Positions 38,129 to 64,000 of a stretch of 64,000 nt of DNA are shown in pieces. The stretch lies in NCBI GenBank assembly GCA_964595945.1, contig CAZQSL010000001.1, positions 36,930 through 100,929 of the forward strand, in the 5' to 3' direction. How positions within the stretch are numbered: the first letter of the stretch is position 1; every line of letters begins with the position of its first letter. The notes under the pieces are model-generated. The model saw only the letters and a list, made by a program, of their open reading frames with translations, ran no database searches and was not told where the DNA came from. Position numbers and translations under genes: made by a program. This DNA is from an uncultured bacterium (lineage in GTDB: Bacteria > UBP15 > UBA6099 > JAJRTR01).

Positions 38129-38295
38129 TCTCCCCCAAAAAATCATTTGCCACCGAACCAATACTGATTATAATAAAATTGCGTGATGAAAAGCACACCT
38201 ATTTTTTTTAAAAATTATATGGCGAAAGATGTGTTGGTGGTATAATTGAATTGAGCATATACATTCTGACGCCAACATGAGATAAGGTGGTCAAT

Positions 38296-40478: not shown

Positions 40479-43040
40479 TTAGTCCTGAGCACAACGAAAG
40501 CCGCGATTGAGGGACCAGTTAGAAGGAACGTACCTGAAGCGAACGGAGACGCGCGAGTACCAGACGTAGTCGATGCCGTCCCAGGAGCCGCCGCGCAAAA
40601 CCCGGAGGTCGTAGTCGCCTATAGTTGGGCCTGTCGGGTCGGTCGACGGGCTCGATGAATAATAGTCGCTCCCATACCAGTCGTTCACCCATTCCCACAC
40701 ATTCCCGCCCATATCCATCACTCCATAATAGCTCTTGTCACTCGAATAACTCCCCACTGCCGCCGTATCGTTTGTTTCACCAGTTACACATGAATGATAT
40801 GTGCTATTTATATCGTGGTAGCCCCTGACATTGCCATAGCATCCGGGCGTACTTCCCCACGGATAGATGTTTGTACTCGGACTCGGCCCCCGCGCCGCCT
40901 TTTCCCACTGCGCTTCCGTAGGCAACTTGCCCCCATACCACGCGCAGAAAAGCGCCGCCTGCGTCCATGTCACATTTATCACGGGATAGTTCGCATACGC
41001 CGAGTTACCGTAATATGACGCCCGTGTGGATGACGATGTGCTACCCGGCGCGGTGCATGAGCCAGCCGCGACGCACGCCTCATATTGCGCGTTCGTCACT
41101 TCGTGTTTCATGATCTTGTATTCAGAAAGATTTACCGTGTGCCTCGGCTGTTGGTCGCTCAAGCAAAAGGAATACCACTTTTTTATTGGGTTACCGTATC
41201 CGTCGTCTGTGTCGTAATAATACCCATCGCCGCTGGCCGCTGATGTGTCCGAGCACCCCATGAGGAAATTCCCCGCGGGGATCGTGATCCACTCGTCCGT
41301 CGGCGTGCCGCTCACCTCGTTGCTTGCCGTGCATTTATCACTGGTATCGCAGGCGTAGACCTTGAAGTAGTATTTCGTGTCCTTCGTCAGCCCCGTGACA
41401 GTCTGTGTGGTATGTGTTTTCGATGTGATGGTGTTGACAGGAGTTGACGACAGAGTGACGCCGGGTGAGGTGGAGCGATAGACTTTGTAGTAGGCGAAAT
41501 TGGTTTTCGAGCTTTGCGACCATGAGAGATCGAGAGATGTGGCCGTGATGTTGAACGGTACGTTCAGGGGCAGCCCGTTTTCGACCGTGATTGATTCGGA
41601 TGTCAATTCGGTAGTGGCGCCATCCTTGTCGGTGACGGTGACTTTTGCGGTGTATGTGCCTGCCGTTTCGTAGGTGTGCGAGGGATTTTTTTCCGTGGAC
41701 GTGCCGCCGTCGCCGAATTTCCACGAATAGGACACGCACGTGATGTCGTCGTCGCTGCAATCAATTTTGAAGCTGACGTCGAGTGGCGATTCGCCGCTTG
41801 CGGGTGATGCTTCCATGGTGGGGGCATGTGCGATTTTTCTTTCGGTAATTGTGAATGCTCCCGTATCCCAGCTCTCAAGCTCATGATCGAAAATTTCTAT
41901 TTGAAATTTTGCCCCGGCTTCAAGGCCGGCGGCAAGTTCCCACAGAGGTTTGACCGTCACTCCTTCGGACAATTGAACGGATTCGCCAGCCAGCATCCTG
42001 AGGTACCCGTTTATGTAGGCTGAGGGCCCGGCAACATTGTACAGCAGCAGTTCGAGTTCGAGGCCGCAATATGCCTTGACCTCTGCCGTGAGAGTTACCT
42101 TTGGAGCATCGTACGAAATGACATTGGTGAATTCCTTGACGGTTGACCATTTCTTGTCGGCATAGCGCATGCCCGCAGTGACCTTAGCGGATTGGACGAT
42201 CTCGGCGGTGAGCGTAGTGGTGATCTTGCCCTGAAGACCAACGTAGACTGTCAGCTTGGGGACGAATACGAGCGGTATGCCGGCATTTACCACAAACGGT
42301 TTGAATTTGAATTTATATATCGGGATTTCCTCTTTAAAACCGGCCAACGGCAGTTTTGAATCCAGTTTGATGTCGAGTTCTTCTTTTGCCGAAGTGGTAA
42401 ACAACAGGCTTTCGAGTTTGAAGCTCTTGATCCGCGCTTTGAAATTCACCGAAGGAGTGAGTGTCACAGAACCCGTGATAGTGGTCTGGTCGTCAAGAGT
42501 GTTTTTGTTGTTGTCCTCGTCATACAGCACATTTTTCAGTTCAATGGAAAAGGATTTCAGATCAAGGTTCGCGGACCGTTTCAGCGAAACGCCTTTCTGA
42601 AGAGCCTCCTCCGAGCTAACATCGTCGAGGGTCAATTCACGGGACACCTCGATGTCGGCCTGCTCAATAGCGTCAGCAAGCGCGGCATTTTCCACGGTGA
42701 CAACGGTGGAGCCGCTGTTGGATGTTTTGGCAACAACCTTCTTCAGCAAGCCGTATGGCGCAGCATCCGTTGGCGCGGAGGCGATGATATCGCCGATGGC
42801 AAGCGCCTGAAGTTGCGGGGTATCGGTGGCGAAAGTGATGGTGTCGGTGGCGACTTCGGTTATGCCAGCGCGAGTTTCGCCATCTAACACACGGGTTTTT
42901 TCACTGAGTACTGTGGGCACGCTCGAATCAGAGGTGCTGCCGCCCCCTCCCCCGCAGCCGCCTGCTGCTATGACGAGGATGGCAAGGATTGCGATGCTGG
43001 TGATGTGTTTCAGATGGTTTGTGCGGTGTGTGTTTTTCAT
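40479..43040 (-). CDS. Large lipoprotein with PKD, fibronectin-III-like and C-terminal FGE-sulfatase (SUMF1-like) domains
   Basis: The ATG at 43040 has a GGAGGA RBS. Lipobox at IAAGGC followed by a Gly/Ser linker. PKD-like motif WKFGDGGTSTEKNPSHTYETAGTYTAKVTVTD. FN3-like segment with FAYYKVYRS. The final ~300 aa carry FGE-sulfatase signatures (RGGSW...GFRCA). The track ORF starts 39 codons upstream. Confidence 0.8.
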   Translation of the reverse strand: MKNTHRTNHLKHITSIAILAILVIAAGGCGGGGGSTSDSSVPTVLSEKTRVLDGETRAGITEVATDTITFATDTPQLQALAIGDIIASAPTDAAPYGLLKKVVAKTSNSGSTVVTVENAALADAIEQADIEVSRELTLDDVSSEEALQKGVSLKRSANLDLKSFSIELKNVLYDEDNNKNTLDDQTTITGSVTLTPSVNFKARIKSFKLESLLFTTSAKEELDIKLDSKLPLAGFKEEIPIYKFKFKPFVVNAGIPLVFVPKLTVYVGLQGKITTTLTAEIVQSAKVTAGMRYADKKWSTVKEFTNVISYDAPKVTLTAEVKAYCGLELELLLYNVAGPSAYINGYLRMLAGESVQLSEGVTVKPLWELAAGLEAGAKFQIEIFDHELESWDTGAFTITERKIAHAPTMEASPASGESPLDVSFKIDCSDDDITCVSYSWKFGDGGTSTEKNPSHTYETAGTYTAKVTVTDKDGATTELTSESITVENGLPLNVPFNITATSLDLSWSQSSKTNFAYYKVYRSTSPGVTLSSTPVNTITSKTHTTQTVTGLTKDTKYYFKVYACDTSDKCTASNEVSGTPTDEWITIPAGNFLMGCSDTSAASGDGYYYDTDDGYGNPIKKWYSFCLSDQQPRHTVNLSEYKIMKHEVTNAQYEACVAAGSCTAPGSTSSSTRASYYGNSAYANYPVINVTWTQAALFCAWYGGKLPTEAQWEKAARGPSPSTNIYPWGSTPGCYGNVRGYHDINSTYHSCVTGETNDTAAVGSYSSDKSYYGVMDMGGNVWEWVNDWYGSDYYSSSPSTDPTGPTIGDYDLRVLRGGSWDGIDYVWYSRVSVRFRYVPSNWSLNRGFRCAQD

Positions 43041-43640
43041 GTGTGTCCTCCGGCCGGGTGATTGTGGCTGCTGGTGGCTCTGTTTTGCGTTTTCGCGAAG
43101 CGGAATTTTCATGCAGTTACAATTGTTGAAGTGTGTCTTTTTGCGATTATATATCATTGCACGCTGTATGGGAAGGGAAATATTGAATATCCCGAGAACA
43201 TCAAGAAGTCAAACCTAAAATCATCTGAAGAATAATTTGTAACAAAATCACTCGGTACAATTAGTCATGCAACTCGATGATAGCTAATGGAAGCGGTAGT
43301 ATTTCCGCATATATGGCGATCTATCCGACACTCGTTGCCGTAATCCGAAAGAGTAGTTGTCAATAATTTGTGGTCTTGTATGTTACATATAAAAAGATGC
43401 TATATGTTACGTCAAATGTAGCAGATCGGGCTATACCGGATTGTATGTCATTGGAGTAATCTTAAGTGGTAAGTTGAGATGTCAGCGTTATGGCAGACAT
43501 CATGTGAGCATAAGTCCACATTGTTGCCCAATGTCTCACAAGTCGGGCAGGATACGGCAGATCGTTGCCGGATGTCATGGTTACAACCGGCATCCTAATG
43601 CCGGGAACAAATTCGAAGTCATTTTTGGCCATTCAAATAA

Positions 43641-45064: not shown

Positions 45065-47719
45065 GTGAGGTCCAATGCCATGTCACAGATAGACTCCCAA
45101 CTCAGCACCGGACTGTCAGGGCTCGACAGGATGATTACCGGACTGATCCCCGGCGACAACATCGTGTGGCATGCCGACACCGTCGACGAATACAAAATCT
45201 TCCTCGCTCCCTATCTCAAGAGCGCGCTCAATTCCGGCCGACGCCTTGTCTATTTCAGATTCGCTACACATGACCCTCTCGTCAGCGACGCAGCAGGCGT
45301 CGAAATAGTGCGGCTCGATGTCGAAAACGGGTTTGAGAACTTCGTATCGGAAATCCACAAAATCGTCCGCGATGCGGGCCGCAACACGTCCTATGTGTTC
45401 GACTGCCTCTCCGACATAGCGCGGTACTGGCTGAGCGACAGGATGCTCGGCAACTTTTTCAAACTTATCTGTCCCTATATCCTCGACATAGAAGCGATCG
45501 CGTACTTCTGCGTGCTGCGCGGCCGGCAAAGCGCCGACGCACTCGAACCCATCCGTGAAACGGCGCAGGTCGTAATCGACATTTTCCGCCACAGAGGAGC
45601 GCTATACCTCCTGCCGCAGAAAGTCCAGCGTCGACATTCCAGCACCATGTACATGCTCCACAAATGGGACGGCATTTACTTCACGCCAGTCGCCGACAGT
45701 TCCACCATCTCCGAAGTGATGATGACAGTTTCCAGCTATTACCTCAATGAAAACAGCGACGAGTGGGGCTATGTCAATCAGGTGTTTCGCGATGCCGCCG
45801 CCGCGTGGGAAAAGACCGGGACCACGAAAAAAAACACCAAGGATGTAGCGCATCTCCTGCGGCAAATCCTCACTATCACCGTCTCGCGCGATCCGCGCAT
45901 CATTGACCTTGCGTCAAAACATCTCACCATCGGCGATGTCCTCGACATCCGCAAACGTATGATCGGCACCGGCCTCATCGGCGGCAAGGCCATCGGCATG
46001 CTCATCGCGGATGCCATCCTGCGAAACAGCGGACGCCAGTGGGACTCACTCCTCGAACGCCATGACTCATTCTACGTTGGCTCCGATGTCTTCTATTCGT
46101 TCATCGTGCGCAACGGCATCTGGTTCATGCGCGAAAAGCAGAAAGACCCGGAATCATACCTTGACGGAGCAAAGGAAGCCCGCCAGCGGATACTCCTCGG
46201 CACTTTCCCCGCCGCGATCAGGGAGCAGTTCTCGAAGATGCTCGACTACTTCGGCCAGTCTCCCGTCATCGTACGCTCAAGCAGCCTGCTCGAAGACAAC
46301 TTCGACAACGCGTTTTCGGGAAAATATGAAAGCGTTTTCTGCGCCAATCAGGGCTCGCGCGAAAAGCGGCTCGAAGATTTCATATCCGCCGTCCTCACCA
46401 TCTACGCCGGCACCATGGGCGAAAAAGCGCTCACCTACCGCGCCCACCGCGGCCTGCTCGCCTCCGACGAACAGATGGCGCTGCTCGTGCAGCGCGTATC
46501 CGGCACAATGCACGACCGGCTGTTTTATCCTCACATCGCTGGCGTGGCATATTCATACAATCCATACGTATGGAGCGACCGCATCGACCCTGACGCCGGC
46601 ATGCTGCGGCTCGTGTTCGGACTCGGCACCCGAGCCGTCGACCGCGTCGACGACGACTATACTCGCATCGTCGCACTCAACGCACCCGAGGTCAGGCCCG
46701 AGTCAGGCCAATCAGGCATCAGGAAATACGCGCAGCACAAAATCGACCTTATCGATCTCGACTCCAACCAGCTTGTCACCGCACAATTCCCCGACATCGC
46801 GGCCCGCAGCGCCGGGCTCAAACTCGAAATGTTCGCCTCGCGCGATCGCGAGGTCGAGCGCCGCGCGGCCGAAAACGGCATGCGCAACGTGTTCTCCTGG
46901 GTGCTCACCTTCAACAAACTCCTGCAGGAAACAGAATTCGTCCACAGAATGCGCGAAATCCTCCAAACCCTCCGCGAATCCTATGGATGCAATGTCGATA
47001 TCGAGTTTACGGCCAATTTCGACAGCGACAATAACTTTCGCATCAGCCTCGTACAATGCCGGCCTTTCATGATCAAGGGCGACGGGCCCGCCAGCAGCCC
47101 GCCCGTTATCATCAAAAAAAAGGACCTCATCGTGCGCTCGTCAGGCGTCGTCATCGGTCGCAGCCGGTCGCTTTCCGTCGACTGGATAGTGTTCGTATCA
47201 CCAGCGGCATACGGAGTGCTGCCGCGTGGCGACCGCTACGAAGTCGCACGACTGCTCGGCACCGTCACTTCCGCGATTTCCCCGCAGAGAGACAAAAATA
47301 TCGTCCTCATCGGCCCAGGCAGATGGGGCTCGTCCATGCCCGAACTCGGCATCCCCGCCACTTTTTCCGAAATCCGCCGCGCCTCAGTCCTCTGCGAAGT
47401 CGTAGCCATGAACAGCAATCTCGTCCCCGAAGTCTCCCTCGGCACTCATTTCTTCAATGACCTTGTCGAAACCGACATACTCTACCTCGCACTCTTCCCC
47501 AATTCGCCCAATAACACAATCAACGAAGCTTTTTTCACCGGCGCGCACAACAGTCTCCTCGAAATATCTCCAGCGGCCACGCATCTTGGCGATGTCGTCA
47601 AGGTCATCGATATCCCCAGAGCCACCGGCGGTCGTACTCTCTGTCTCCACGCTAATGTTTTCAATCAGGAAGTCATAACTTACATCGACGCCGCTGACCG
47701 GTCGCGCACACAGAAATGA
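45065..47719 (+). CDS. PEP/pyruvate-binding (PPDK_N-type) domain protein with N-terminal degenerate KaiC/RecA-like domain
   Basis: The N-terminal ~270 aa resemble a KaiC-like fold but lack a Walker A motif (GLIPGDNIVWHADT). The central PPDK_N signature VRSSSLLEDNFDNAFSGKYESV is present. No PEP-utilising phospho-His domain was recognised. Confidence 0.72.
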   Translation: MRSNAMSQIDSQLSTGLSGLDRMITGLIPGDNIVWHADTVDEYKIFLAPYLKSALNSGRRLVYFRFATHDPLVSDAAGVEIVRLDVENGFENFVSEIHKIVRDAGRNTSYVFDCLSDIARYWLSDRMLGNFFKLICPYILDIEAIAYFCVLRGRQSADALEPIRETAQVVIDIFRHRGALYLLPQKVQRRHSSTMYMLHKWDGIYFTPVADSSTISEVMMTVSSYYLNENSDEWGYVNQVFRDAAAAWEKTGTTKKNTKDVAHLLRQILTITVSRDPRIIDLASKHLTIGDVLDIRKRMIGTGLIGGKAIGMLIADAILRNSGRQWDSLLERHDSFYVGSDVFYSFIVRNGIWFMREKQKDPESYLDGAKEARQRILLGTFPAAIREQFSKMLDYFGQSPVIVRSSSLLEDNFDNAFSGKYESVFCANQGSREKRLEDFISAVLTIYAGTMGEKALTYRAHRGLLASDEQMALLVQRVSGTMHDRLFYPHIAGVAYSYNPYVWSDRIDPDAGMLRLVFGLGTRAVDRVDDDYTRIVALNAPEVRPESGQSGIRKYAQHKIDLIDLDSNQLVTAQFPDIAARSAGLKLEMFASRDREVERRAAENGMRNVFSWVLTFNKLLQETEFVHRMREILQTLRESYGCNVDIEFTANFDSDNNFRISLVQCRPFMIKGDGPASSPPVIIKKKDLIVRSSGVVIGRSRSLSVDWIVFVSPAAYGVLPRGDRYEVARLLGTVTSAISPQRDKNIVLIGPGRWGSSMPELGIPATFSEIRRASVLCEVVAMNSNLVPEVSLGTHFFNDLVETDILYLALFPNSPNNTINEAFFTGAHNSLLEISPAATHLGDVVKVIDIPRATGGRTLCLHANVFNQEVITYIDAADRSRTQK

Positions 47720-49703: not shown

Positions 49704-52700
49704 TTATTTATAGCTTACCTTAATAGTCTTTATCTCGAAATGACCGACAGGGATCGTAAGCGTGTTGCCGGAGATTTTGATGGCGGCTGGCTGCCAGTCG
49801 GGTTTCTGCTCGATGAGATTGACCTCTACGGCAGACGCGACGGGTGCGGGGAGAGTAATGGTGGCGATCGAGTCTTTGCCGGTAGACTCGAAGAGCCGGA
49901 TAATGGCGCCATCGTCGTCCTCCGCCTTTTTGAGGGCAGTGAGTACGATGTTCGCGGGAGTTGCGCCGAAGAATGATTTTGCGGGGGGGAGCGTGCCGGC
50001 GTGGTTTTCGCTGATGCGGTAGATGGCAGGGTAATTGAAAGCGTAGGCCTGCTGATGGGTGCCGGCGTCGCGCCAGTCGGATTTGTGGGGGAAGAGCGCA
50101 TATTTGAAAGTGTGTTTGCCACGGTCGGCCACGGGGTCGGGTTCGGTGGGAGCGCGGAGGACAGTCATGCGCATGATGTTGTCCTTGATGTCGAATCCGT
50201 ATTTGCCGTTGTTGAGCAGGCTCACTCCGAAGGCTGCGGCCGGGTCGGTATAGTCGATCCATTTGATAGCGGAGACTTCATATTTCGCGCGGTCGGCATC
50301 GGTGAGGGAGACTGTGCGGCGCTCGATAGCGGCGTAGGGAATGTCATACCACGCGGTTTCGCTCTGGAGATTGAGATCGAAGGCGAGTTTTGTGACGACG
50401 TGATCCTCATGCCAGTCGGCGTCGATGCGGCCTTCGATGATGGGGAGTCCGGAGTAAAGGGAAACGTATTGTGTGAAAGTCGATTTGGCGGTGCCGGTGG
50501 TGAATCGGAAGGTGGAGCGCACGGGACCGTTTTCGATGATGGCGGGAGCGGATTTTGTCGTGAGCGGGATTTCGGGGCCGAAGGCGAGTTCCCACGCGTC
50601 ATACTGCGCGGGCCGGTCGGTGAAGAGCTGTAGGTAGTTGGCGGATTTGCCTGGGGCGATGATTTCGCGCCGTGATTTTTTGTCGATGATCGAAGTGATG
50701 GCGCCGGATGTCTGGTCAAAGGTGAGGCGGAAGTAGTCGTTTTCGATGACATTGGGAGATGGCGCCGCAATGCCGGTTGCGGGTTTTGCGCCTTTGGGGG
50801 CGTTGGTGATGCGGTAGACGGCATAGCCGCCGGCCGGTATGTTGCGTGCGACGAATACCAGATTTTTGTCGGGAGGATTGACTATCTGGAATTGCGATGG
50901 CACGGGATTGCCTCTATCGTCGAGGATGATCGGGTTTTCGGGCAGGGAGTAAGTCCAGGGGATTTCCATTACCGAGTCGCGGGGAAATGACAGGGGATTG
51001 TGGATGACGAGGGGCGTACCATTGCCTGTGGTGTCAATATGAGACTCGATGGTGGCGAGTGATTCGGCGATTACGGAGCCGAGTGTCTGCTGCTGGATGG
51101 CATAATCCCTGTCGGCATCCCTGTATACAGAATTGATGCTCGAGCCGGGGAGAATGTCGTGGAACTGGTTGAAGAGGATCGTGTGCCATCCGTCGAGGAT
51201 GCGTGATGAAGGATAGGGAAGTGAGAAGAGCGTGGATGCGACCGAAGCGAATTTCTCGCCTTCCTCCTGAAGGATTTCGCCTATGCGGTTGTTGCGTTTC
51301 GTGTCTGACTGAGTGGTGTAAGTGCCGCGGTGGAATTCGAGGTAGAGTTCGTCTTTCCAGACCGGGAACTGCTGTTGTTTCGCGAGCTGGGCGAGATGAT
51401 CGAAGTAATCTTCGGCGGTGGTGAATCTGATGTTGGGGAAAATGTCATTGTCCCTGAGCGAAAACGCGCGGTTGAGATGTGTGCGGGTGACAGCGCCTCC
51501 GTGGTCGCCGACGCCGAATATCATAAGGTTCTCCGGCACATTGTGGTGGTCAAGGACTGTCTTGAGCTGAGTGAGCATATTGCGCGAGTTGTTGTCTTCG
51601 CAGTAGCTGCCGACTGGAAAATACGTCAGGACGCGCGAACCGTCGGGGCCTTCCCACCAGAAGATGTTGTAGGGAAATTTCGTGGTGTCATTCCAGTTGA
51701 TCTTCTGCGTGAGAAATCCGCTGATGCCAGAGCGGCGGAGTATCTGAGGGAGTCCGAGGTTGTAGCCGAATGAGTCGGGTGTCCAGCCGATCCTGACGTC
51801 TTTGCCGAATCGTGACTGGAAATAGCGTTTGCCATAGAGATATTGCCGCACGTAGGCTTCGCCCGATGGGACGTTGCCGTCATGCTCGACCCACGCGCCG
51901 CCGACTGCTTCCCAGCGGTTTTCGGCTATTCGCTTTTTGATGCCGTCGAATGTATGCGGGTAGTCGTGCTCCATCCATGCGTATCCATGCGCCTGGCCGG
52001 CGTTGAAGATAAATTCGGGATACTCATCCATAAGGTTGAGTACCGTGTTGGAAGTGTTGAGCCATACGTCCTCGCCTTCGTGTTTGTCCCAGAGCCACGC
52101 GAGGTCGATGTGGGAGTATCCGATGAGGTAGATGGTGTATTTTTTTGCGACTTCCCTGAAGGGCAGGAGCAGCTTGCCGGCTTCGTCAAGTGATTTGACA
52201 AAGGCGGATTCGTCGGTCACGCGAGCCTTGAGATCGACGAGCGCGGCGGACTGGTCGAGCAGCGATTTCCATTTTTCCGGGTCGGGCGTGAGTGTAAGCA
52301 GTGCTTCGACGGCGCGAACCTTGTCGATATACTCGTTGGCGCGGCGGCCTGAGTCATCCATCGATGTAAATGATATGTACGCGTTGCGGAATAGTCCGAT
52401 GTCTCGCTGATTGTCGACTCGCAGCACGATTACATATTCTTCGCCGGGATTAGCGTTTGAGGTGAGTATGGCATCGCCGCCCTCATGGCGGAAATAACCT
52501 CCGAAATTGCCGTTGACGTAGATCGAGCCTGGTGGTGACATGGCAATGTTGACGAGCACTTTTGCCCCTTTTGTGGAGCGGCCGCCAATGGTTTCTGGGA
52601 TTTTGTATGAAGTGCGGAACCAGCGTACGCCCTGATCTTTCCACATGAATCCGTTGTTGGGCACGGTACGCCATCCCTGCGGTTCATAGTTGGGATCGGT

Positions 52701-52880
52701 GACATGCATGTCGGCTGTCATCGTCGATTTCCATTTGGGCAGATTGATTTCGTAGGCGCTCCGGGCTTCAGAAAGCGCGGTGATGACATCCTGATACTTC
52801 GGAGCCTGTTCGGCTGCGTGTACCGGCATGGCAAATGCCATCAGGAACAACGCCGCGCGGATTGTCCGGAATAGTTTCAT
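49704..52880 (-). CDS. Glycoside hydrolase family 38 alpha-mannosidase (secreted)
   Basis: Signal peptide. GH38 N-terminal catalytic region with GYSHIDLAWLW. The central and C-terminal beta domains have typical length. Confidence 0.88.
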   Translation of the reverse strand: MKLFRTIRAALFLMAFAMPVHAAEQAPKYQDVITALSEARSAYEINLPKWKSTMTADMHVTDPNYEPQGWRTVPNNGFMWKDQGVRWFRTSYKIPETIGGRSTKGAKVLVNIAMSPPGSIYVNGNFGGYFRHEGGDAILTSNANPGEEYVIVLRVDNQRDIGLFRNAYISFTSMDDSGRRANEYIDKVRAVEALLTLTPDPEKWKSLLDQSAALVDLKARVTDESAFVKSLDEAGKLLLPFREVAKKYTIYLIGYSHIDLAWLWDKHEGEDVWLNTSNTVLNLMDEYPEFIFNAGQAHGYAWMEHDYPHTFDGIKKRIAENRWEAVGGAWVEHDGNVPSGEAYVRQYLYGKRYFQSRFGKDVRIGWTPDSFGYNLGLPQILRRSGISGFLTQKINWNDTTKFPYNIFWWEGPDGSRVLTYFPVGSYCEDNNSRNMLTQLKTVLDHHNVPENLMIFGVGDHGGAVTRTHLNRAFSLRDNDIFPNIRFTTAEDYFDHLAQLAKQQQFPVWKDELYLEFHRGTYTTQSDTKRNNRIGEILQEEGEKFASVASTLFSLPYPSSRILDGWHTILFNQFHDILPGSSINSVYRDADRDYAIQQQTLGSVIAESLATIESHIDTTGNGTPLVIHNPLSFPRDSVMEIPWTYSLPENPIILDDRGNPVPSQFQIVNPPDKNLVFVARNIPAGGYAVYRITNAPKGAKPATGIAAPSPNVIENDYFRLTFDQTSGAITSIIDKKSRREIIAPGKSANYLQLFTDRPAQYDAWELAFGPEIPLTTKSAPAIIENGPVRSTFRFTTGTAKSTFTQYVSLYSGLPIIEGRIDADWHEDHVVTKLAFDLNLQSETAWYDIPYAAIERRTVSLTDADRAKYEVSAIKWIDYTDPAAAFGVSLLNNGKYGFDIKDNIMRMTVLRAPTEPDPVADRGKHTFKYALFPHKSDWRDAGTHQQAYAFNYPAIYRISENHAGTLPPAKSFFGATPANIVLTALKKAEDDDGAIIRLFESTGKDSIATITLPAPVASAVEVNLIEQKPDWQPAAIKISGNTLTIPVGHFEIKTIKVSYK

Positions 52881-53030: not shown

Positions 53031-54479
53031 TCACTTCCGTGCGCCTTTTTTCGCAAGCATCATCTCCGCGTGCTTGTTGAGGTCCTTGGGGAAGATGAGA
53101 AATGCAATAACACCGGTAAGCGCGAAAAAAGCGCCGACGAGTCCCGTGAGCTGTATGCCCAGAGGATGCTCGATGCTGAATCCGTAGATGTTGAACATCT
53201 GTGTCATCAGAAGCGATGAAATCCCGAGATTGACCTTCTGGAAAAATCCCTGAGTGCCGAAGTAGATGGCTTCGCGGCGAAGCCCGGTGAATTTTTCGTC
53301 GTAGTCTGTCAGGTCGGCTACGAGCGCGTTGGGCACGATGAAGAGGCTGCCGAGCGGTATGCCGATCAGAGCGATGATCATGTAGCCGAAAATGACGGGG
53401 CTTTTGGGGATTGCGTGCAGCCCGAGTGCCGTTACTCCTTGATTGACGAAGTCGATGAATGCGTAGAATCTGATTGTTTCGAGCGGTTTTTCCATGCCGA
53501 AGAAGTAAATTGTCGGCAGAAGTACGAGGAACATCAGGAGTGACATCAGCATGAGTACTCGTTTGCTGATGACGCGTGACAGGGCGTTGATGAGGAAGAT
53601 CGACAGGAAGGCGACTCCGAGCGCGAGTGCGAAAAATATGGTCGACTGTTCCTTGGGAAGCTTGAGAAGGGCCGTGACATAATATGGCACGCAGGTAGTG
53701 ATGATGTTGAATCCGAACCAGAAGCTCAGATTGCCGATGAGATAAATGACATAGGGCGTGTTTTTCAGGGTGGAGACAATGGTCTCCGTGACGCTCAGAT
53801 GCGATGGCTCGGCGACGCAGTATTTCTTTTCGTCAATGCCAATGACCGGCAGGTAAAACGTGATCGCCGCGAGTATCGCCATGAAAACCGCCATGCCGCC
53901 GTATCCGAATTTTTCGATCAGCATGGGCGACATCACCATGCCGATGACTGTGCCGATCAGCATCAGGATACCCTGCATGGATGTCAGATTGATGCGGTCT
54001 TCGGGTGTGCGGGTGAGCTCCGGCAGCAGCCCGAGATATGGGCACACATAGAAGGAAAAGAAGAAGAAAAACGTCGAGAGCATCACCGCGAGATAGACCG
54101 TGTTGAGGATATGTACATGGTTGACGGGCGGGAAAAACATAAGCGCAAGCGATGTGGCGAGCGGTATGCCGCCGTAAAGCATGAATGGCATCCTGCGTCC
54201 GCGCCGCGAACCGCACTTGTCCGAAAAATATGCCACCCCGGGATCGATGAACGTGTCAAGTGTGCGCCCCAGCAGGAAGATAAATCCTACGACTTTTACT
54301 GGCACAAGCTCGACCATCCCCTGAGTGCCTGCCGGCGGCGCGTAGAAAAACATCAGCCATGTCGCCATGACTCTGTCCACTATCGAAATCCCGACGTTGC
54401 CGAGTGAATATAATACCTGATTGCCAAACGGCAACCGCGGCGGCGCCGCCTGTGTGTTTCCCTGTCCCTTTTCAGCCAT
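53031..54479 (-). CDS. GPH-family (glycoside-pentoside-hexuronide) MFS symporter
   Basis: Twelve TM segments and a GPH-type N-terminus. The ATG at 54479 has a GAGGG RBS. Confidence 0.8.
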   Translation of the reverse strand: MAEKGQGNTQAAPPRLPFGNQVLYSLGNVGISIVDRVMATWLMFFYAPPAGTQGMVELVPVKVVGFIFLLGRTLDTFIDPGVAYFSDKCGSRRGRRMPFMLYGGIPLATSLALMFFPPVNHVHILNTVYLAVMLSTFFFFFSFYVCPYLGLLPELTRTPEDRINLTSMQGILMLIGTVIGMVMSPMLIEKFGYGGMAVFMAILAAITFYLPVIGIDEKKYCVAEPSHLSVTETIVSTLKNTPYVIYLIGNLSFWFGFNIITTCVPYYVTALLKLPKEQSTIFFALALGVAFLSIFLINALSRVISKRVLMLMSLLMFLVLLPTIYFFGMEKPLETIRFYAFIDFVNQGVTALGLHAIPKSPVIFGYMIIALIGIPLGSLFIVPNALVADLTDYDEKFTGLRREAIYFGTQGFFQKVNLGISSLLMTQMFNIYGFSIEHPLGIQLTGLVGAFFALTGVIAFLIFPKDLNKHAEMMLAKKGARK

Positions 54480-54627
54480 TTCAAGCCCTCGCATTATTGT
54501 CATGTTTTATATTCATCAATGCAGTCCAAGCTATTCTATCACAAGCAAAGCACATTAGAAACAGCAAAAAACGCCTGAGCCATAAAAGCCTTCGAAATGG
54601 AGCCGGCGCCGGGAAATGACAGGCAAG

Positions 54628-55603: not shown

Positions 55604-56275
55604 ATGGAAGCGCTCAATAAAAGAATGTCGAAAAACCTTGTAACCTATGGCGAATTACTCAAGTCCACGATTGACACTATGGCGCAGTCATTCGACGCAC
55701 TTTACCGGAATTCCGCTCCCGTCGTATTTGAAAATGTGGCGAGAAACGTGCGCGATGCCGAGTCGAAGTGCGACATGATAAGGCGCGAGATGGAGTATCA
55801 GTTGTGCGCTGTCAAGATGGATGAAAGCGCCCGGAATGACCTTATTTCGCTCCTGCATCAGATGGATAAAGTCCCGAACAGGGCCGAAGATGTGGCGAAT
55901 TTCATTTACATGACCGGAGTCATGCTGCCGGAAAACTATCGCGATCAGATGCGGGAAATACTGCGATTCACGACACAGTGCTGCGCGGCGCTCGCCGGGA
56001 GTTTCGCTGACGCTTTCACGCGCGGTGAAATCACGCCTGATGCCACGGCTGAAGTTTCCCGCCTCGAAAGCGCTGTCGACACGATCGAGAGGCATACCAT
56101 CAAACGGTTTTTCACAGATAACGCACTCGACATGGGCACGCGGCTGTTGCTACGCGAACTCACGATGATGTTGTGCGATATTTCAGACCATGCCGAAAAC
56201 GCTGCGAATACTCTTGATATCTTTATGATGAAACATGGCAGTAATGCAGGGATGGGAAACTCGCACGTCGCCTGA
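55604..56275 (+). CDS. DUF47 family protein (PhoU-like, Pit accessory-type)
   Basis: GGAGG RBS. A roughly 210-aa all-helical protein with DUF47-like conserved acidic/His positions (DISDHAEN). Confidence 0.65.
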   Translation: MEALNKRMSKNLVTYGELLKSTIDTMAQSFDALYRNSAPVVFENVARNVRDAESKCDMIRREMEYQLCAVKMDESARNDLISLLHQMDKVPNRAEDVANFIYMTGVMLPENYRDQMREILRFTTQCCAALAGSFADAFTRGEITPDATAEVSRLESAVDTIERHTIKRFFTDNALDMGTRLLLRELTMMLCDISDHAENAANTLDIFMMKHGSNAGMGNSHVA

Positions 56276-58547: not shown

Positions 58548-58576
58548 TTAACATTATATGTCATCTGGAATATAAT
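58548..58576 (+). promoter_or_regulatory. Sigma-70-type promoter (TTAACA-17-TATAAT) for the transaldolase-like gene
   Basis: TTAACA at 58548-58553, a 17-nt spacer, and TATAAT at 58571-58576. A GGAG RBS lies before the ATG at 58620. Confidence 0.5.
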
Positions 58577-58619
58577 GATTGGGATTGCCGAAGCAGTCAA
58601 TTCGCAGATGGAGTGTCCC

Positions 58620-60746
58620 ATGAGCAACAAAAAGAATTTTGCAGATGAGGTCAAGCAGGTAATCGCGGCCGCAGTGCCCGCGCCCCTGACCCTCGGCGAA
58701 GGATTTCAGCCCGATGAAGACCATGCGGCAGGCGCAGTGAAACTCACTCTCGCAGGCCAGACACATGTCGCAGCTGACCACTTCCTGTTCCCCGAACTCG
58801 CGGAAGTGGCCGCCGAGATCATCGGCGAATCCATCCGCCGCCTCAACCTCGCGCTCGCCGGCGCTACAATTACAGATTCCGACAACGGCGAAACACGCTC
58901 CAAAAAAATTCTGACCTGGTTCTACACATACGATTTTCTGCTCGAACTCGCCCTCAACTATGTCGGGCTCGAAAGCCGCGAAATCCACGATCACTCGAAG
59001 ACGCAGGCTCTCGACTACATCAGCAATATGCTCGAATACATGGAAGAAGTCGAGTGCGAACAGCACGGCGAATCCTTCATCGCCGCCGCGACAGTGTTGC
59101 GCATCCTCGAAAAGATGAAGCTCGTGCAGGGCGGCGTCAGCATGGTCGCCAGAGCCGCCGGCCGCATCGAAAAGGCACTCGCCGAAGATGAAGGCGATTT
59201 CGTCACCATCGCTTTCCTCTCAGCCGCCGAAGATGAAATCCTCGACAACATCTACACCCAGATGATCACGGCTGGAGTATGCCGCTTCGGCAACGATTAT
59301 GCTCTCGGCCTTCGCTGGTTGCGCCACCTCGGATTCGAGCAGGTTTCGACCAACCCCGTCCTTGCCGCAAAAGCGTACGCCGATGATCCGTCCCTCAAAG
59401 GGGAATTCATCAGAGCCGCAAAATGTCATCCGAAATATGCTGAATGGAAAAAGAATCCCGCCAAGGCAGGCGACGAAATCACTCTCTTCGCCACCCTAAC
59501 CGCGCTCTGGGACAACCTGCATGTATACCGCCCTGTCTTCTATAATCTCGCCGAAGAATCAGGCGGCGGTGTCGTCAGCTTCCAGCTCAATCCCAACCTC
59601 GCGCACCTCGCCGACGAGAGCATCGCCGATGCTCTCGATGCGCTCGCTCAGGCCGAATCCGACCTCCGCATCTATGACGAATACCTCCTTGCAGGATTTC
59701 CCAACTACACCGACAAGGGCCGAGCCAACATGGTCATCAAAGTCGCAGCCGCTCATCCTGCAGCCATGGATATCGCCGCCGCCATCAACTCCTTCGGCCT
59801 CGGATCAAACATCACTGTCATCTACACCGTCGCTCAGGAAGCCACTATGATCATCGAAGAAATGCGCGGCATGGCGCGCGCTATTCGCCGCGGCATCGTA
59901 CCCACTCAGCTCTACATGACCAACATGGGCGGCCGCCTCGAAAGCCACCTCCGCGAAGTTTTCCTCGAAGCCGCTTTCGCAAAGCTCGCAAAAAAATCAG
60001 GCGAATCCGCCGCACTCTCCGCCGTCGAAAAACTCGCCGTCGCCAATGGTTCGGTAGCCGCAGTCAACGGAGCTTCTTCCTTCGCCGAAAAAGTCATTGC
60101 CGTCACAAGGTTCGGCGTCCAGAAAACCATCGACCACAACATCACCACCGCACTCGCCGGACTCTATACCGCTGACGAACTCACTGCCTGGGAAGACGCT
60201 ATCGGCAAATCCGGCACACTCGTCGCCCGCCGCGTGTGGAGCCTTTTCTTCAGCGACAAAAACCGCGCCCGCTGGATGGCCTTCATGTGCGAAGAATTCG
60301 AGATCGACGAAGAACAGGCCGAATTCATCCTCTCGCGCATCAACGTGCTTCCCGCTTCCAAACGCAAACCCCACGATACTTACTGGACTCTTTCTTCCAC
60401 CAACATGGTACATACCGAATTCGGCAACCATCAGGAAAACGTGCGTGTCATGGCCGACGATGAAGAATTCATCATATCCGACTATGTCGAATCCATCCGC
60501 GACGCATTCCCGCAGCAGGTTACCGATATGCTCATGCAGATTCCAGACTTCGTCACGGCTTACGAACTCAGTGAAGACCTCGCCCAACTCGCCGAAGCCC
60601 TCGGCATAAAAGACGACCTCGGCGCGCGCGGCCACACGCCCGAACAGTGGGGCGAATTCGGCTCAGTCAAAAAAACCATCACCGAATTCAAGGCCGCTTA
60701 CAGCGAATTCAGAGACTACATCGTCGCAGCATTCGCCGAGGCATGA
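58620..60746 (+). CDS. Large (708 aa) transaldolase-family protein with N- and C-terminal extensions
   Basis: The central region carries transaldolase/FSA signatures (GLRWLRHLGFEQVSTNPVL and NITVIYTVAQ...TNMGGRLE). The track ORF starts at 58215, but the ATG at 58620 has an RBS and a promoter. Confidence 0.6.
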   Translation: MSNKKNFADEVKQVIAAAVPAPLTLGEGFQPDEDHAAGAVKLTLAGQTHVAADHFLFPELAEVAAEIIGESIRRLNLALAGATITDSDNGETRSKKILTWFYTYDFLLELALNYVGLESREIHDHSKTQALDYISNMLEYMEEVECEQHGESFIAAATVLRILEKMKLVQGGVSMVARAAGRIEKALAEDEGDFVTIAFLSAAEDEILDNIYTQMITAGVCRFGNDYALGLRWLRHLGFEQVSTNPVLAAKAYADDPSLKGEFIRAAKCHPKYAEWKKNPAKAGDEITLFATLTALWDNLHVYRPVFYNLAEESGGGVVSFQLNPNLAHLADESIADALDALAQAESDLRIYDEYLLAGFPNYTDKGRANMVIKVAAAHPAAMDIAAAINSFGLGSNITVIYTVAQEATMIIEEMRGMARAIRRGIVPTQLYMTNMGGRLESHLREVFLEAAFAKLAKKSGESAALSAVEKLAVANGSVAAVNGASSFAEKVIAVTRFGVQKTIDHNITTALAGLYTADELTAWEDAIGKSGTLVARRVWSLFFSDKNRARWMAFMCEEFEIDEEQAEFILSRINVLPASKRKPHDTYWTLSSTNMVHTEFGNHQENVRVMADDEEFIISDYVESIRDAFPQQVTDMLMQIPDFVTAYELSEDLAQLAEALGIKDDLGARGHTPEQWGEFGSVKKTITEFKAAYSEFRDYIVAAFAEA

Positions 60747-60786
60747 CCGGTGTGCCGCCTCAGGCGGAAAGATCAGAATAGCAAAA

Positions 60787-60811
60787 GGCGGGGAGTGATC
60801 CCCGCCTTTTT
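60787..60811. terminator. Bidirectional terminator between the transaldolase-like gene and hydA
   Basis: ggcgggga-gtga-tccccgcc, with an A run on the 5' side and a T run on the 3' side. Confidence 0.55.
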
Positions 60812-60847
60812 ATATGGAGTAATGCGGCACTTGTGTCGCTGGGCGCG

Positions 60848-62869
60848 TCAGTCGTCGGCGACGGTGACGGCGGGAGGGAAAGCCGGAATGATTTCTTCGT
60901 CGAAGATTTCTTCGAGCCGGCCCGCGGTAGCATTGCCGATGACTTTTCCGTTGACAGAAAGGTTGGGGCTGGCCGTGCAGTTTTCGAAGCAGAAAGTGGC
61001 TTTGAGATCGACTTCGCTCAGCAGACCCTTTGATTTGAGCATTCGGCTGAGTTTCTGCATGACATCGTACGAGCCGTTCTGGAAGCAGCAGGTACCGACA
61101 CATACACGGATTTCGACGGGGCCGGCGCTTTCGCCGAGAGTGATGGTTTCCTCAATGCGGCGGCGCGAGGAGAAATGTGTGTGGAGGGCGTGGTGGGCTT
61201 CGTCGCTGTTGGGTGTGACGAGATGTTTCGAGTAGAGGGTTTTGATGTCTTCGTTGTTGTGGGACTGGCGGAATTTTTTAACCTTGTCGATAGTTGCAAG
61301 GCCTTTGGCGCGTTTTGCGCGGTTTTCGAGGGTGTCGTGAGCGACATTGCCAGCGCCGCCGATGCAGCCGCCGGGACATGCCATGACTTCGACAAGGTGG
61401 TATTTCTTTTTGTTTTCCTTGATCTCGGCGATGAGGCGTTCGGCGGCGGCCATGCCGTTGACGGTGGCGATGCGGATTTCGGTGCCGTTGATTGTGACGG
61501 CCGTTTCGCGGTGCGAGACGCCGGCGGCGGCGGTTTCCCACACGTCGCGTTCGAGTTCTTCGCCGGTGAGTGCCTTGTAGGCAGTGCGTAGCGCGGCTTC
61601 GGCTACGCCGCCGGACGCGCCGAATATTACACCCGCGCCGGTGGATTCGCCATAGGGTTTTTCCCATTCGCCGTCGGGGAGGTTGTGGAAGTCGAGACCG
61701 TAGGCGCGGATCATTTTGGCGAGTTCGTGTGTTGTGATGACGACATCCGTGTCGAGATGGCCGTTTGTGGAAAATTCTTCGCGCTGGGCTTCGAACTTTT
61801 TGGCGCTGCACGGCATGACGGATACGGAGAAGATATCTTCGGTTTTCAGTCCGTGGTCTTCGGCGTAGTATTTTTTGATGACGGATGCGAACATCTGCTG
61901 CGGTGAGCGGCAGGAAGAGAGGTTGGCGAGGAGTTCGGGATGGTTGTGTTCGGCGGTCTTGACCCAGCCGGGGCAGCATGATGTGAAGATGGGAAGGTTT
62001 TCGTCGGCTTCGAGGCGTTTGAGGAATTCGGTGGCTTCTTCCATGATAGTGAGGTCGGCGGCGAAGTTGGTGTCGAAGACGGCGTGGGCGCCCATCGCGC
62101 GGAGCGCGGAGACGATTTTGCCCTCGCAGTTGACGCCGGGTTCGAGTCCGAAAAACTCGCCGATGCCGACGCGGACTGATGGCGCGACCTGGAAGACGAC
62201 TTTTTTGTTGGGGTCGCCGAGTGCTTTGAAGACTTTCGAAAAATCGGCTTTGACCATGAGTGCGCCGGTGGGGCAGACGGTGGTGCACTGGCCGCAGAAG
62301 ATACATTCGACTTCGTGGAGTTTCATGCCGTATGCGGGAGCGACTTCGACATTGGAGCCGCGGTTGGCGAAGTCGATGATATGCAGGCCCTGATGTTCGA
62401 GGCACATGCGGACGCAGGCGCCGCAGAGGATGCACTTGTTGGGGTCGCGTATGATCGAGGGGTTGTAATTGTCGATGGGTTCCTTGTGCTCCATCTTGTT
62501 GTCGAAGCGGACGTGGTCGATGCCGAGGCGTTCGGAGTAGTCCTGTAGTTTGCATTCGCCGCTTTTATGGCAGGTGAGGCAGTCGCGGTCGTGAGCTGCG
62601 AGCATGAGTTCGAGAGCCATTTTGCGCACGCGCAGGGTGCGGTCGGTGTGGGTGCGGATTTCGAGATTGTCTTCCGGCGGGGCGGTGCAGGATGTGAGGA
62701 GCCCGCGTTTGCCGGCGTCGACGACGCACATGCGGCAGGCGCCGAATGGCGTGAGGTGGGCCTGATAGCAGAAAGTGGGAAGCTCGATTCCGGCTTTTTT
62801 TACTACTTCGAGGATATTTTTTTCGGCGCCGAATTCGACGGGTTGGCCGTTAACGATCATCTGTGGCAT
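60848..62869 (-). CDS. hydA: [FeFe]-hydrogenase catalytic subunit with NuoG-like N-terminal ferredoxin domains and C-terminal thioredoxin-like [2Fe-2S] domain
   Basis: H-cluster motifs L1 TSCCPGW, L2 MPCSAKKFE and L3 EVMACPGGCIGG. N-terminal 2Fe-2S and 2x 4Fe-4S motifs. The ATG at 62869 has an AAGGAGG RBS and overlaps the upstream stop as TAATG. Confidence 0.88.
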   Translation of the reverse strand: MPQMIVNGQPVEFGAEKNILEVVKKAGIELPTFCYQAHLTPFGACRMCVVDAGKRGLLTSCTAPPEDNLEIRTHTDRTLRVRKMALELMLAAHDRDCLTCHKSGECKLQDYSERLGIDHVRFDNKMEHKEPIDNYNPSIIRDPNKCILCGACVRMCLEHQGLHIIDFANRGSNVEVAPAYGMKLHEVECIFCGQCTTVCPTGALMVKADFSKVFKALGDPNKKVVFQVAPSVRVGIGEFFGLEPGVNCEGKIVSALRAMGAHAVFDTNFAADLTIMEEATEFLKRLEADENLPIFTSCCPGWVKTAEHNHPELLANLSSCRSPQQMFASVIKKYYAEDHGLKTEDIFSVSVMPCSAKKFEAQREEFSTNGHLDTDVVITTHELAKMIRAYGLDFHNLPDGEWEKPYGESTGAGVIFGASGGVAEAALRTAYKALTGEELERDVWETAAAGVSHRETAVTINGTEIRIATVNGMAAAERLIAEIKENKKKYHLVEVMACPGGCIGGAGNVAHDTLENRAKRAKGLATIDKVKKFRQSHNNEDIKTLYSKHLVTPNSDEAHHALHTHFSSRRRIEETITLGESAGPVEIRVCVGTCCFQNGSYDVMQKLSRMLKSKGLLSEVDLKATFCFENCTASPNLSVNGKVIGNATAGRLEEIFDEEIIPAFPPAVTVADD

Positions 62870-64000
62870 TACGCGACCTCCTTGATAGCGTGAAATGGGC
62901 AACTGCCGACGCAGGCGCCGCAACGTACGCATGTTTCAGGATCAATGACGAAAGGTTCCTTGATTTTTCCGCTGATGGCGGCGGCGGGGCAGACGCGAGA
63001 GCACTTGCCGCAGCCTTTGCATTCGAGCGGTTCGATCTTGTACGACTTGAATGCCTGACAGACCTTCGCCGGGCAGCGCCCTTCGATGACGTGGGCGTTG
63101 TATTCGTCGAGAAAGTATTTGAGAGTGGAGAGTACGGGGTTGGGGGCGGTTTTGCCGAGTCCGCACAGGGATCCGTCTTTCACGGCGACGGCGAGTTCTT
63201 CGATTGTAATGAGGTCTTCCGGAGTGCCGATGCCACCGGTAATTTTTTCGAGGATTTGCAGCATGCGTTTGGTGCCTTCGCGGCAGAGCACGCATTTTCC
63301 GCAGCTTTCGTTTTGCGTGAAGTTCATGAAGAATCGTGCGACGTCGACTATGCAGGTGTCTTCGTTCATGACGACGAGTCCGCCCGAACCTATCATTGCG
63401 CCTACGGACAGCAGGCTGTCGTAGTCGAGGGGGAGATCGAGATGTTGCTCGGTGAGACATCCGCCGGACGGTCCGCCGATCTGGACTGCCTTGAACTTTT
63501 TGCCGTTGCGGCAGCCGCCGCCGATTTCGAATATGATTTCGCGGAGTGTCGTGCCCATCGGGACTTCGATCAACCCTGTGTTGACGACTTCGCCAGTGAG
63601 AGCGAAGGTCTTGGTGCCTTTGCCCTTTTCGGTGCCCATCGAGGCGAACCAGTCAGCGCCGCGCTGGATGATGAGCGGGATGTTGGCGAGAGTTTCGACA
63701 TTGTTGATGAGGGTGGGTTTGCCGAAGAGGCCGGAATTGGCGGGGAAGGGCGGTTTGCTGCGGGGCATGCCGCGGTAGCCTTCGATAGAAGCGATGAGGG
63801 CGGTTTCTTCGCCGCAGACAAAAGCGCCAGCGCCCTCTTTAACTTTTACTTTGAAATTGAATTTGTAGCCAAGAATGTTTTCGCCGAGGAGTCCCTGTTC
63901 GGTTGCCTGGGCGATAGCGGTTTTCATGCGTGCGACGGCAAGGGGATATTCGGCGCGTACATATATGTATCCTTCGTCCGCTCCGATTGCGTAGGCCGCG
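62869..64000 (-). CDS. NuoF-like NADH-binding FMN/FeS subunit of bifurcating hydrogenase (HydB/HndC-type), 5' end beyond the window
   Basis: NuoF motifs [21 protein letters not shown]-terminal 2x[4Fe-4S] ferredoxin ([12 protein letters not shown]...[12 protein letters not shown]). The frame stays open to the window edge at 64000. Confidence 0.85.

Follow-up and report, generated by a model that had tools for sequence, protein, structure and literature searches.

A ~700-residue transaldolase-fold family, mostly from uncultured bacteria and archaea, with a predicted unusual set of catalytic residues, large family-specific additions and a putative role in uronate or inositol use

Which reaction would be catalysed by a transaldolase-like protein of 708 residues? 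This question is raised by a gene detected in a stretch of 64,000 nucleotides (hereafter the window; positions 36,930 to 100,929 of contig CAZQSL010000001.1, assembly GCA_964595945.1) from an uncultured bacterium of the lineage JAJRTR01. Transaldolases (TAL) and fructose-6-phosphate aldolase (FSA) are textbook enzymes of the pentose-phosphate pathway and are widely used as biocatalysts. The set of acid/base residues, Glu and Phe or Gln and Tyr, is thought to decide between transaldolase and aldolase chemistry. The best explanation of the data presented below, to which we give a probability of about 0.4, is that the protein would be a class-I aldolase or transaldolase of the TAL/FSA superfamily, acting through a Schiff-base lysine by the mechanism proposed here and cleaving D-fructuronate.

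The 708-residue protein genuinely belongs to the transaldolase/FSA fold. A profile search, recommended by an earlier reading of the window made from the sequence only, gave a match to the Pfam family TAL_FSA (PF00923) of 35.6 bits for a gathering score of 27 (E-value 8.5e-9); this match spans only the positions 4-146 of the 285 positions of the profile. TAL_FSA was also found in 21 of 24 diverse relatives, and no other Pfam family, PGI included, was detected in the protein or in these 24 sequences. A profile built from the family matches the transaldolase of N. gonorrhoeae (NgTAL) in the PDB with an E-value of 1e-11 (a single-sequence phmmer search against the PDB returned nothing relevant), and the significant Foldseek matches of the structure model are transaldolases throughout, with a probability of 1.0. 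The scores against the NCBIfam transaldolase equivalogs NF002881 and TIGR00876 are far below the cut-offs (22 bits for 367 and 14.8 bits for 233.75, respectively). The known Tal-Pgi fusions are likewise long polypeptides with a transaldolase barrel, but neither the protein nor its 24 relatives contain a PGI/SIS domain and their extra sequence is helical and family-specific. This identity was rejected because only TAL_FSA was found, as the sequence-only reading had already concluded.

The model obtained with AlphaFold2 (AF2) from 120 homologues reaches a predicted local distance difference test score of 91.8 and a predicted template modelling score of 0.91; it replaced an earlier AF2 model from 20 sequences, which was of low confidence exactly at the strands β1, β2 and β8. 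The eight strands of the barrel are localized at residues 222-225, 241-243, 318-322, 371-376, 395-401, 431-435, 574-577 and 596-599. Because they span this range, the barrel extends approximately from residue 222 to residue 600 and is followed by the C-terminal helices 602-707. The family-specific additions are two. The first is an N-terminal helical domain of 217 residues, with the invariant motifs AADHxL (residues 51-56), E109, N113 and G116. The second is a helical segment of 137 residues between β6 and β7 (about 45 in TalB); it opens with the invariant sequence GGRxESHLRE. No structural match above the generic level was obtained for these extra helical regions.

This anatomy differs from the one first proposed. 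The barrel had been placed only at about residues 230-500, preceded by an extension of about 270 residues and followed by another of about 200 residues. In the AF2 model the strands run from residue 222 to residue 599, the N-terminal extension is reduced to about 217 residues, and the supposed C-terminal extension consists mostly of the 137-residue segment, of β7 and β8 and of ordinary transaldolase C-terminal helices. The description as a central barrel with two large flanks was wrong, for the "C-terminal extension" holds β7, β8 and the phosphate-site motif ASKR. Its statement that the flanks are acidic and helical was correct: the isoelectric points are 4.56 for the N-terminal part and 4.20 for the C-terminal part, and both parts are helical in the model.

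The residue equivalences were established with hmmsearch and hhalign, by comparing the family alignment with TalB (sequence identical to PDB 1ucw) and NgTAL. The hhalign comparison of the unedited alignment with TalB ended at β5, and the C-terminal half alone gave no hhalign alignment with TalB; after removal of the two insertions the alignment reached β7 (probability 93%, E-value 3e-7). The residues N245, S320, K374, N397 and T399 correspond to N35, S94, K132, N154 and T156 of TalB in hmmsearch and hhalign. The residues T434, M436 and R439 correspond to S176, F178 and R181, and S580 and R582 to S226 and R228, in the insertion-trimmed hhalign alignment; R439 is included in the GGRxESHLRE sequence. 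The residue D226 follows β1 as Asp17 does in TalB, an equivalence given by strand position and motif spacing and not by a tool alignment.

Conservation was counted in 84 full-length members from bacteria and archaea. Lys374 is included in the sequence IKVAAAHPAAMD on strand 371-376 and is a lysine in 83 of the 84 members; the lysine of this motif had been named as the catalytic candidate, and it aligns with the Schiff-base lysines of TalB (K132) and NgTAL. D226, N245, N397 and T399 are kept in 82-83 members, whereas R439, S580 and R582 are kept in 83-84 (S580 in 84, R582 in 83). Overall, each of the residues aligned above is conserved in 82-84 of the 84 members. To judge from these alignments, the predicted Schiff-base machinery and anion site are intact in the family. 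The catalytic glutamate expected from the first reading is absent: its position (E96 in TalB, E93 in NgTAL) is occupied by Gln322, conserved as Gln in 83/84 members and never replaced by Glu. Met436, at the position of Phe178 of TalB and Tyr131 of FSA, is Met in 82/84 members. Finally, the C-terminal end of β8 carries a family-specific residue, Glu600, conserved in all 84 members and replaced by Val in the nearest relatives of about 450 residues. A single member deviates from this pattern: P0156 (626 residues, no Pfam match) has the Schiff-base lysine changed to Gly and the Gln changed to Arg, and has lost the Arg of the GGR motif and most other active-site residues. It is probably a non-catalytic paralogue.

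In FSA, Lys85 and Tyr131 act together with Gln59 and Thr109, which organise the catalytic water (PMC13259622). According to the summary given in the same paper, a swap of the water-organising residues between FSA and TalB turns aldolase activity into transaldolase activity and vice versa (PMC13259622). The family matches neither the FSA set (Gln and Tyr) nor the TalB set (Glu and Phe); it is a predicted third arrangement, composed of Gln, Met and an invariant Glu on β8.

The classical long transaldolases (TalB, PDB 1onr and 1ucw; NgTAL, 3clm; C. glutamicum TAL, 3r5e) carry the same Schiff-base lysine on β4, and their residues Asp17, Asn35, Asn154, Thr156, Ser176, Arg181, Ser226 and Arg228 (TalB numbering) have equivalents in the family. 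However, the 708-residue protein is only 14-17% identical to them, Glu96 and Phe178 of TalB are replaced by Gln322 and Met436, the family adds the 217-residue N-terminal domain and about 90 residues between β6 and β7, and its members adjoin uronate or inositol genes rather than pentose-phosphate genes. E. coli FsaA (PDB 1l6w) shares with the family the Schiff-base lysine, the Asp, the Asn and the Thr, and its Gln59 is localized at the transaldolase Glu position, as Gln322 is. FSA is a true aldolase that releases dihydroxyacetone, in line with the chemistry proposed below. In contrast to the 708-residue protein, it has 220 residues and forms decamers, and it contains neither the N-terminal domain nor the β6-β7 insertion; in the protein studied here, Met436 stands in place of the FSA proton shuttle, Tyr131.

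The closest relatives outside the family are TAL-like proteins of about 450 residues (P0206, P0210, P0218 and P0224; E-values of 1e-5 to 1e-7), which are uncharacterised. They share with the family the motifs WGNDYA, TTNP, VSFQLNP (with the Gln), FKV, GVNxTV, GRLDD and AS.R and the C-terminal FxQAYE...F helices. An N-terminal helical extension is present in them too, and their TAL_FSA scores are 79-108 bits. They differ by the absence of the β6-β7 insertion and of most of the N-terminal domain, and by the Val in place of Glu600. One protein of this type is encoded in a module composed of a LacI regulator, the TAL-like protein and a major facilitator superfamily (MFS) transporter; such proteins are found in loci L085 and L086.

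A word-indexed protein search gave 826 matches with an E-value of at most 1e-3. The best 120 of these cover 95-100% of the query with 53-59% identity and, where the source gives a name, are called "hypothetical protein". An exhaustive search of representatives at 50% identity gave 110 matches, among which about 15 full-length clusters (626-725 residues) and the weakly related TAL-like group of about 450 residues were found; the length in the family is about 650-790 residues. Among the GTDB species, each represented by one genome, 202 were found to carry a homologue. The best 80 of these are metagenome-assembled genomes throughout, and their bacterial hosts belong to the Methylomirabilota, Armatimonadota, Thermodesulfobacteriota/Syntrophaceae and Chloroflexota. 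The archaeal branch (Thermoprotei and Bathyarchaeia) is 40-42% identical to the 708-residue protein and its members are annotated as "hypothetical", "transaldolase family protein" or "transaldolase". No solved structure of the family was found in the PDB, and no paper on the ~700-residue family or on a fructuronate aldolase was found in the literature. These proteins form a distinct, strongly conserved and so far uncharacterised subfamily of about 700 residues, as had been supposed when a new subfamily was suggested from the sequence; the searches extend it over bacteria and archaea.

The genes adjacent to the homologues of the 708-residue protein (X in the following) were clustered and annotated in 78 species-level loci. 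A hexuronate or inositol gene lies within 6 kb in 50 loci. The dominant partner is the tagaturonate epimerase UxaE (PF16257, 549 bits), which is present in 33/78 loci, often with overlapping stop and start codons, and is the immediate same-strand neighbour of X in 27/78. The Thermodesulfobacteriota (locus L048, for example) display the operon IolB-like - UxaE - X - xylose-isomerase-like TIM (triosephosphate isomerase-type) protein; the best matches of the latter, below threshold, are IolO, psicose epimerase and hydroxypyruvate isomerase. In L034 the operon is IolM - glyoxylate reductase - UxaE - X - UxaC, where the glucuronate isomerase UxaC scores 499 bits for a cut-off of 387. The pair X - UxaE occurs in the Methylomirabilota and the Armatimonadota, and a GntR regulator and a tripartite ATP-independent periplasmic transporter stand beside X and UxaE in L001. 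The clusters of the Thermoprotei contain IolG and IolM, both above cut-off (TIGR04380, 359 bits for 355; NF041097, 521 for 450), UxaE, X and a glyoxylate reductase (602 bits), and an Ignisphaera locus resembles them. L063 and L068 also contain IolN (NF041098, 240 bits for 245) and an IolO-like protein (229 for 300). The archaeal clusters with IolG, IolM, IolN and IolO-like genes together with UxaE, X and glyoxylate reductase are L060, L063, L068 and L089. A DeoC-type aldolase is present in a few archaeal loci. The intermediates of the hexuronate/inositol route are those listed in PMC5931981, and UxaE with the downstream kdgA-kdgK-uxuB-uxuA operon is described in PMC3750489. A co-occurrence with pentose-phosphate genes, which the first reading proposed to check, was not observed: no such gene is a conserved neighbour among the 78 loci, and hexuronate and inositol genes stand there instead. 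These neighbours of many relatives suggest a new reaction in which a sugar acid is cleaved, and not that of an ordinary transaldolase. The alternative raised at the outset, a transaldolase fold reused for another reaction, would fit the Gln and Met substitutions, the failed equivalogs and the hexuronate/inositol neighbourhoods.

Other genes recur in these loci. Upstream of the UxaE-X operon of the Thermodesulfobacteriota (L026-L052), 14-18 loci share two genes on the opposite strand, encoding a Memo-like protein (AmmeMemoRadiSam system protein B) and an arginyl-tRNA synthetase, the latter identified by visual inspection of the sequence. In L004, an unrelated locus, a Memo gene likewise lies just upstream of X. 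In the Bathyarchaeia (L071, L072, L081 and L083), a fused Fae-Hps gene is localized three genes upstream, adjoining a TIM-barrel gene and IolG, which may point to a connection with archaeal pentose-phosphate synthesis in these organisms.

In the mechanism that we propose, UxaE and uronate isomerases (IolB-like, or UxaC in one locus) would produce D-fructuronate. This compound can be seen as an analogue of fructose 6-phosphate in which a carboxylate replaces the CH2-OPO3 group, and its configuration at C3/C4 is the one cleaved by TAL and FSA. Lys374 on β4 would form an imine at the C2 carbonyl of such a ketose-type substrate, Asp226, Asn245, Asn397 and Thr399 would bind the donor moiety in the way known from TalB and FSA, and Arg439, Ser580, Lys581 and Arg582 would hold the distal anionic group, here the carboxylate of D-fructuronate. 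As the acid/base Glu is replaced by Gln322 and the Tyr of FSA by Met436, the proton shuttle must lie elsewhere; the foremost candidate for the missing acid/base residue, as a guess, is Glu600 at the end of β8. Retro-aldol splitting of the C3-C4 bond would yield tartronate semialdehyde and a dihydroxyacetone unit, the latter being set free or passed on to an acceptor. The adjacent 2-hydroxyacid dehydrogenase or hydroxypyruvate-isomerase-like TIM protein may convert the tartronate semialdehyde into glycerate or hydroxypyruvate. The enzyme would then represent the last C-C-cleaving step of a hexuronate and Thermotoga-type inositol branch devoid of UxuB, UxuA, KdgK and KdgA. D-Fructuronate cleavage appears the most likely reaction because the operons combine UxaE, uronate isomerases, IolO- or hydroxypyruvate-isomerase-like TIM proteins and glyoxylate/hydroxypyruvate reductase. 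A wider proposal is possible but doubtful: the whole family would be a previously unknown keto-hexuronate (D-fructuronate) aldolase, its acid/base residue moved from β3 (Glu96) to β8 (Glu600) and acting in concert with the N-terminal and β6-β7 helical domains, and would define a new hexuronate/inositol branch in uncultured bacteria and archaea that yields dihydroxyacetone and tartronate semialdehyde and avoids UxuB, UxuA, KdgK and KdgA.

There is a precedent for a substrate of this type. BmSF-TAL (PDB 8bc3 and 8c4i) is an enzyme of the TAL family acting on a fructose analogue with a 6-sulfonate, comparable to the 6-carboxylate considered here. It differs from the 708-residue protein by being short (about 220 residues), decameric and encoded in sulfoquinovose operons, and the profile and structure searches revealed no specific sequence relationship between the two beyond the superfamily.

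Several observations weigh against D-fructuronate cleavage. No homologue of UxaE, IolM, IolO, IolB or IolN is present within the 64-kb window, where the gene is monocistronic, and the three closest homologues that have long contigs (57-58% identity) also stand alone, surrounded by housekeeping genes. No linked sugar gene was detected in 28 of the 78 loci. UxuA, UxuB and KdgK do not appear among the annotated conserved neighbour clusters, a result covering these loci and the part of the neighbours that is annotated. The acid/base role of Glu600 is conjectural, and the hhalign alignment of β8 with TalB is unreliable. On the other hand, the window protein and UxaE-linked bacterial members share one cluster (at least 50% identity), and UxaE is present in 27 of the 46 loci of this cluster, which makes the transfer of function to the window protein reasonable, not certain.

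The conserved Arg/Ser/Arg site bears on a second reading, in which the substrate would be a phosphorylated ketose. The protein would then be either a divergent transaldolase of the pentose-phosphate pathway or an aldolase/transaldolase for tagatose 6-phosphate, fructose 6-phosphate or a phosphorylated keto-uronate, and oligomerisation or regulation would be the task of the extra domains. This triad, equivalent to R181, S226 and R228 of TalB, is complete and conserved, and from its composition R439, S580 and R582 would fit a phosphate as well as a carboxylate, which counts equally against the uronate substrate. So do the PfkB or FGGY kinases adjacent to X in five archaeal loci. The solitary, housekeeping-like setting of the window gene and of its closest homologues, with its own promoter, and the label "transaldolase" given to members by some sources also agree with this reading. 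We nevertheless consider it unlikely. The acid/base Glu is Gln in 83/84 members and the Phe is Met, at a site where the residue swaps summarised in PMC13259622 interconvert the FSA and TalB activities; the NCBIfam transaldolase models fail by a wide margin; and, instead of a conserved pentose-phosphate neighbour, the dominant partner is UxaE, the known substrates of which are unphosphorylated uronates.

The inositol genes would suit another reaction, the opening of the inositol ring. A Schiff base formed on scyllo-inosose or 3-dehydro-scyllo-inosose would be followed by retro-aldol or retro-Claisen cleavage, and the product, a 5-keto-hexose or 5-keto-hexonate, would feed IolO and UxaE. IolG and IolM are neighbours of X in many archaeal and some bacterial loci, IolG being immediately adjacent in eight, and these substrates would present the carbonyl, α-carbon hydroxyl and β-carbon hydroxyl pattern cleaved by transaldolases. 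However, the dedicated ring-opening hydrolase IolN coexists with X in the fullest clusters (L063 and L068), 23 of the 33 UxaE loci have neither IolG nor IolM within 7 kb, and the conserved Arg/Ser/Lys/Arg anion site would be superfluous for a neutral cyclitol, so that ring opening is quite improbable. Two related roles were considered and rejected: a replacement of IolN by X, as both coexist, and a replacement of the thiamine diphosphate enzyme IolD, as an imine would be unable to stabilise the acyl anion of an α-diketone cleavage.

Finally, a pseudoenzyme, scaffold or sensor built on the transaldolase barrel, to which the non-catalytic look of the large helical additions in the AF2 model, the loss of the canonical acid/base residue and the divergent P0156 might point, is very improbable, because Lys374 and ten other active-site positions are near-invariant from bacteria to archaea at only 40% identity, a pattern typical of an active enzyme, and X lies inside catabolic operons with overlapping genes.

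The sequence from 58620 to 60746 is a real gene. The open reading frame (ORF) announced in the sequence-only reading was recovered with its exact count of 708 codons, read on the forward strand of the window from the ATG to the stop codon at 60744-60746 (Table 1). The promoter and the ribosome-binding site announced with it were also found at their places. Two longer starts exist, on one hand that of a mechanical ORF of 843 residues from position 58215 and, on the other hand, that of the deposited sequence P0001 (723 residues), 15 codons upstream; both fall upstream of or inside the promoter. The start at 58620 was retained because of the promoter, the GGAG sequence six bases upstream and the homologues, which begin at the same position. 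The coding sequence has a G+C content of 0.566, and of 0.681 at third codon positions, similar to that of neighbouring genes, and a horizontal-transfer artefact was rejected on this ground.

Table 1. Positions in the window of the 708-codon gene, of its parts and of the adjacent expression signals.
Feature	Position	Strand	Basis
Sigma-70-like promoter TTAACA-17-TATAAT	58548..58576	+	Consensus scan, 11/12 positions match
Ribosome-binding site GGAG	58610..58613	+	6 nt before the ATG, read from the sequence
Coding sequence of the 708-residue transaldolase-fold protein, stop included	58620..60746	+	ORF reading; homologue starts align
N-terminal all-helical domain, residues 1-217, acidic, family-specific	58620..59270	+	AF2 secondary structure; isoelectric point 4.56
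Strands β1-β6 and helices, residues 218-436 (D226, N245, Q322, K374, N397, T399, T434, M436)	59271..59927	+	AF2 strands; hmmsearch/hhalign residue equivalences
Gln322 codon, at the transaldolase catalytic Glu position	59583..59585	+	hmmsearch, hhalign (TalB E96, NgTAL E93)
Lys374 codon, predicted Schiff-base lysine on β4	59739..59741	+	Alignment to TalB K132 and NgTAL AMIKVPAT
β6-β7 helical segment, residues 437-573	59928..60338	+	AF2 helices; absent from the ~450-residue relatives
β7 and β8, residues 574-601, with LPASKR (S580, R582) and HTEF (E600)	60339..60422	+	AF2 strands 574-577 and 596-599; hhalign on the insertion-trimmed alignment
C-terminal helices, residues 602-708, acidic	60423..60743	+	AF2; conserved as far as the ~450-residue relatives
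G+C-rich hairpin with A- and U-runs, probable bidirectional intrinsic terminator	60783..60812	.	RNA folding

The gene is localized between uvrC and a [FeFe]-hydrogenase gene cluster, in the DNA of a diderm anaerobe. The hairpin that separates it from the convergent hydrogenase gene comprises 12 base pairs (AAAAGGCGGGGA-GUGA-UCCCCGCCUUUU) between an A-run and a U-run, and its folding energy is -22.7 kcal/mol (z-score -5.34; none of 200 shuffled sequences folds as well). The two runs on opposite sides mean that it could terminate both convergent genes; it was not listed by the consensus terminator scan, and an Rfam scan of the window gave no matches. The gene was considered monocistronic because of its own promoter and of this hairpin toward the hydrogenase gene.

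The convergent gene (60848-62932, reverse strand) encodes the large subunit of a [FeFe]-hydrogenase, with N-terminal 2Fe-2S/NuoG-type and 4Fe-4S domains, a small-subunit domain and, as an additional element, a thioredoxin-like 2Fe-2S domain at the C-terminus. It is overlapped over 64 nt by the gene of a NuoF-like flavoprotein (62869-63927, reverse strand). The region 60848-63927 resembles a cluster of the electron-bifurcating HydABC type that includes a fused HydC-like domain. On the other side, 4-9 kb upstream of the 708-residue protein gene, a GH38 alpha-mannosidase of 1058 residues (49704-52880, reverse strand) adjoins an MFS_2 sugar transporter (53031-54503, reverse strand). The contig of the close homologue P0003 likewise carries a GH38 gene, about 1.5 kb upstream, and this could be a case of common synteny or reflect a weak functional connection with the use of sugars. 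A DUF47/PhoU_div protein is encoded at 55604-56275 (forward strand), 2.3 kb upstream, and a PhoU_div protein is encoded directly downstream of the homologue in the Desulfurococcales loci L075, L079 and L084; this proximity may be a coincidence. Farther upstream, the window encodes a dockerin-domain protein (38287-39393, forward strand), a protein of 891 residues that has an FGE-sulfatase domain at its C-terminus besides PKD and fn3 repeats (40479-43157, reverse strand) and a protein of 884 residues whose only match is the nucleotide-binding domain PPDK_N (45065-47719, forward strand).

The family described here is three times the size of FSA and is found with 40-59% identity from the Thermodesulfobacteriota and Methylomirabilota to the Thermoprotei and Bathyarchaeia, under database labels that are only "hypothetical" or "transaldolase family protein". 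If its members cleave D-fructuronate, they would close a gap in the use of pectin-derived uronates and of inositol by many uncultured anaerobes and hyperthermophilic archaea. Metabolic reconstructions in which these genes are scored as pentose-phosphate transaldolases would then need revision, and the enzyme would provide a new biocatalyst for the formation of C-C bonds in carboxylated sugars.

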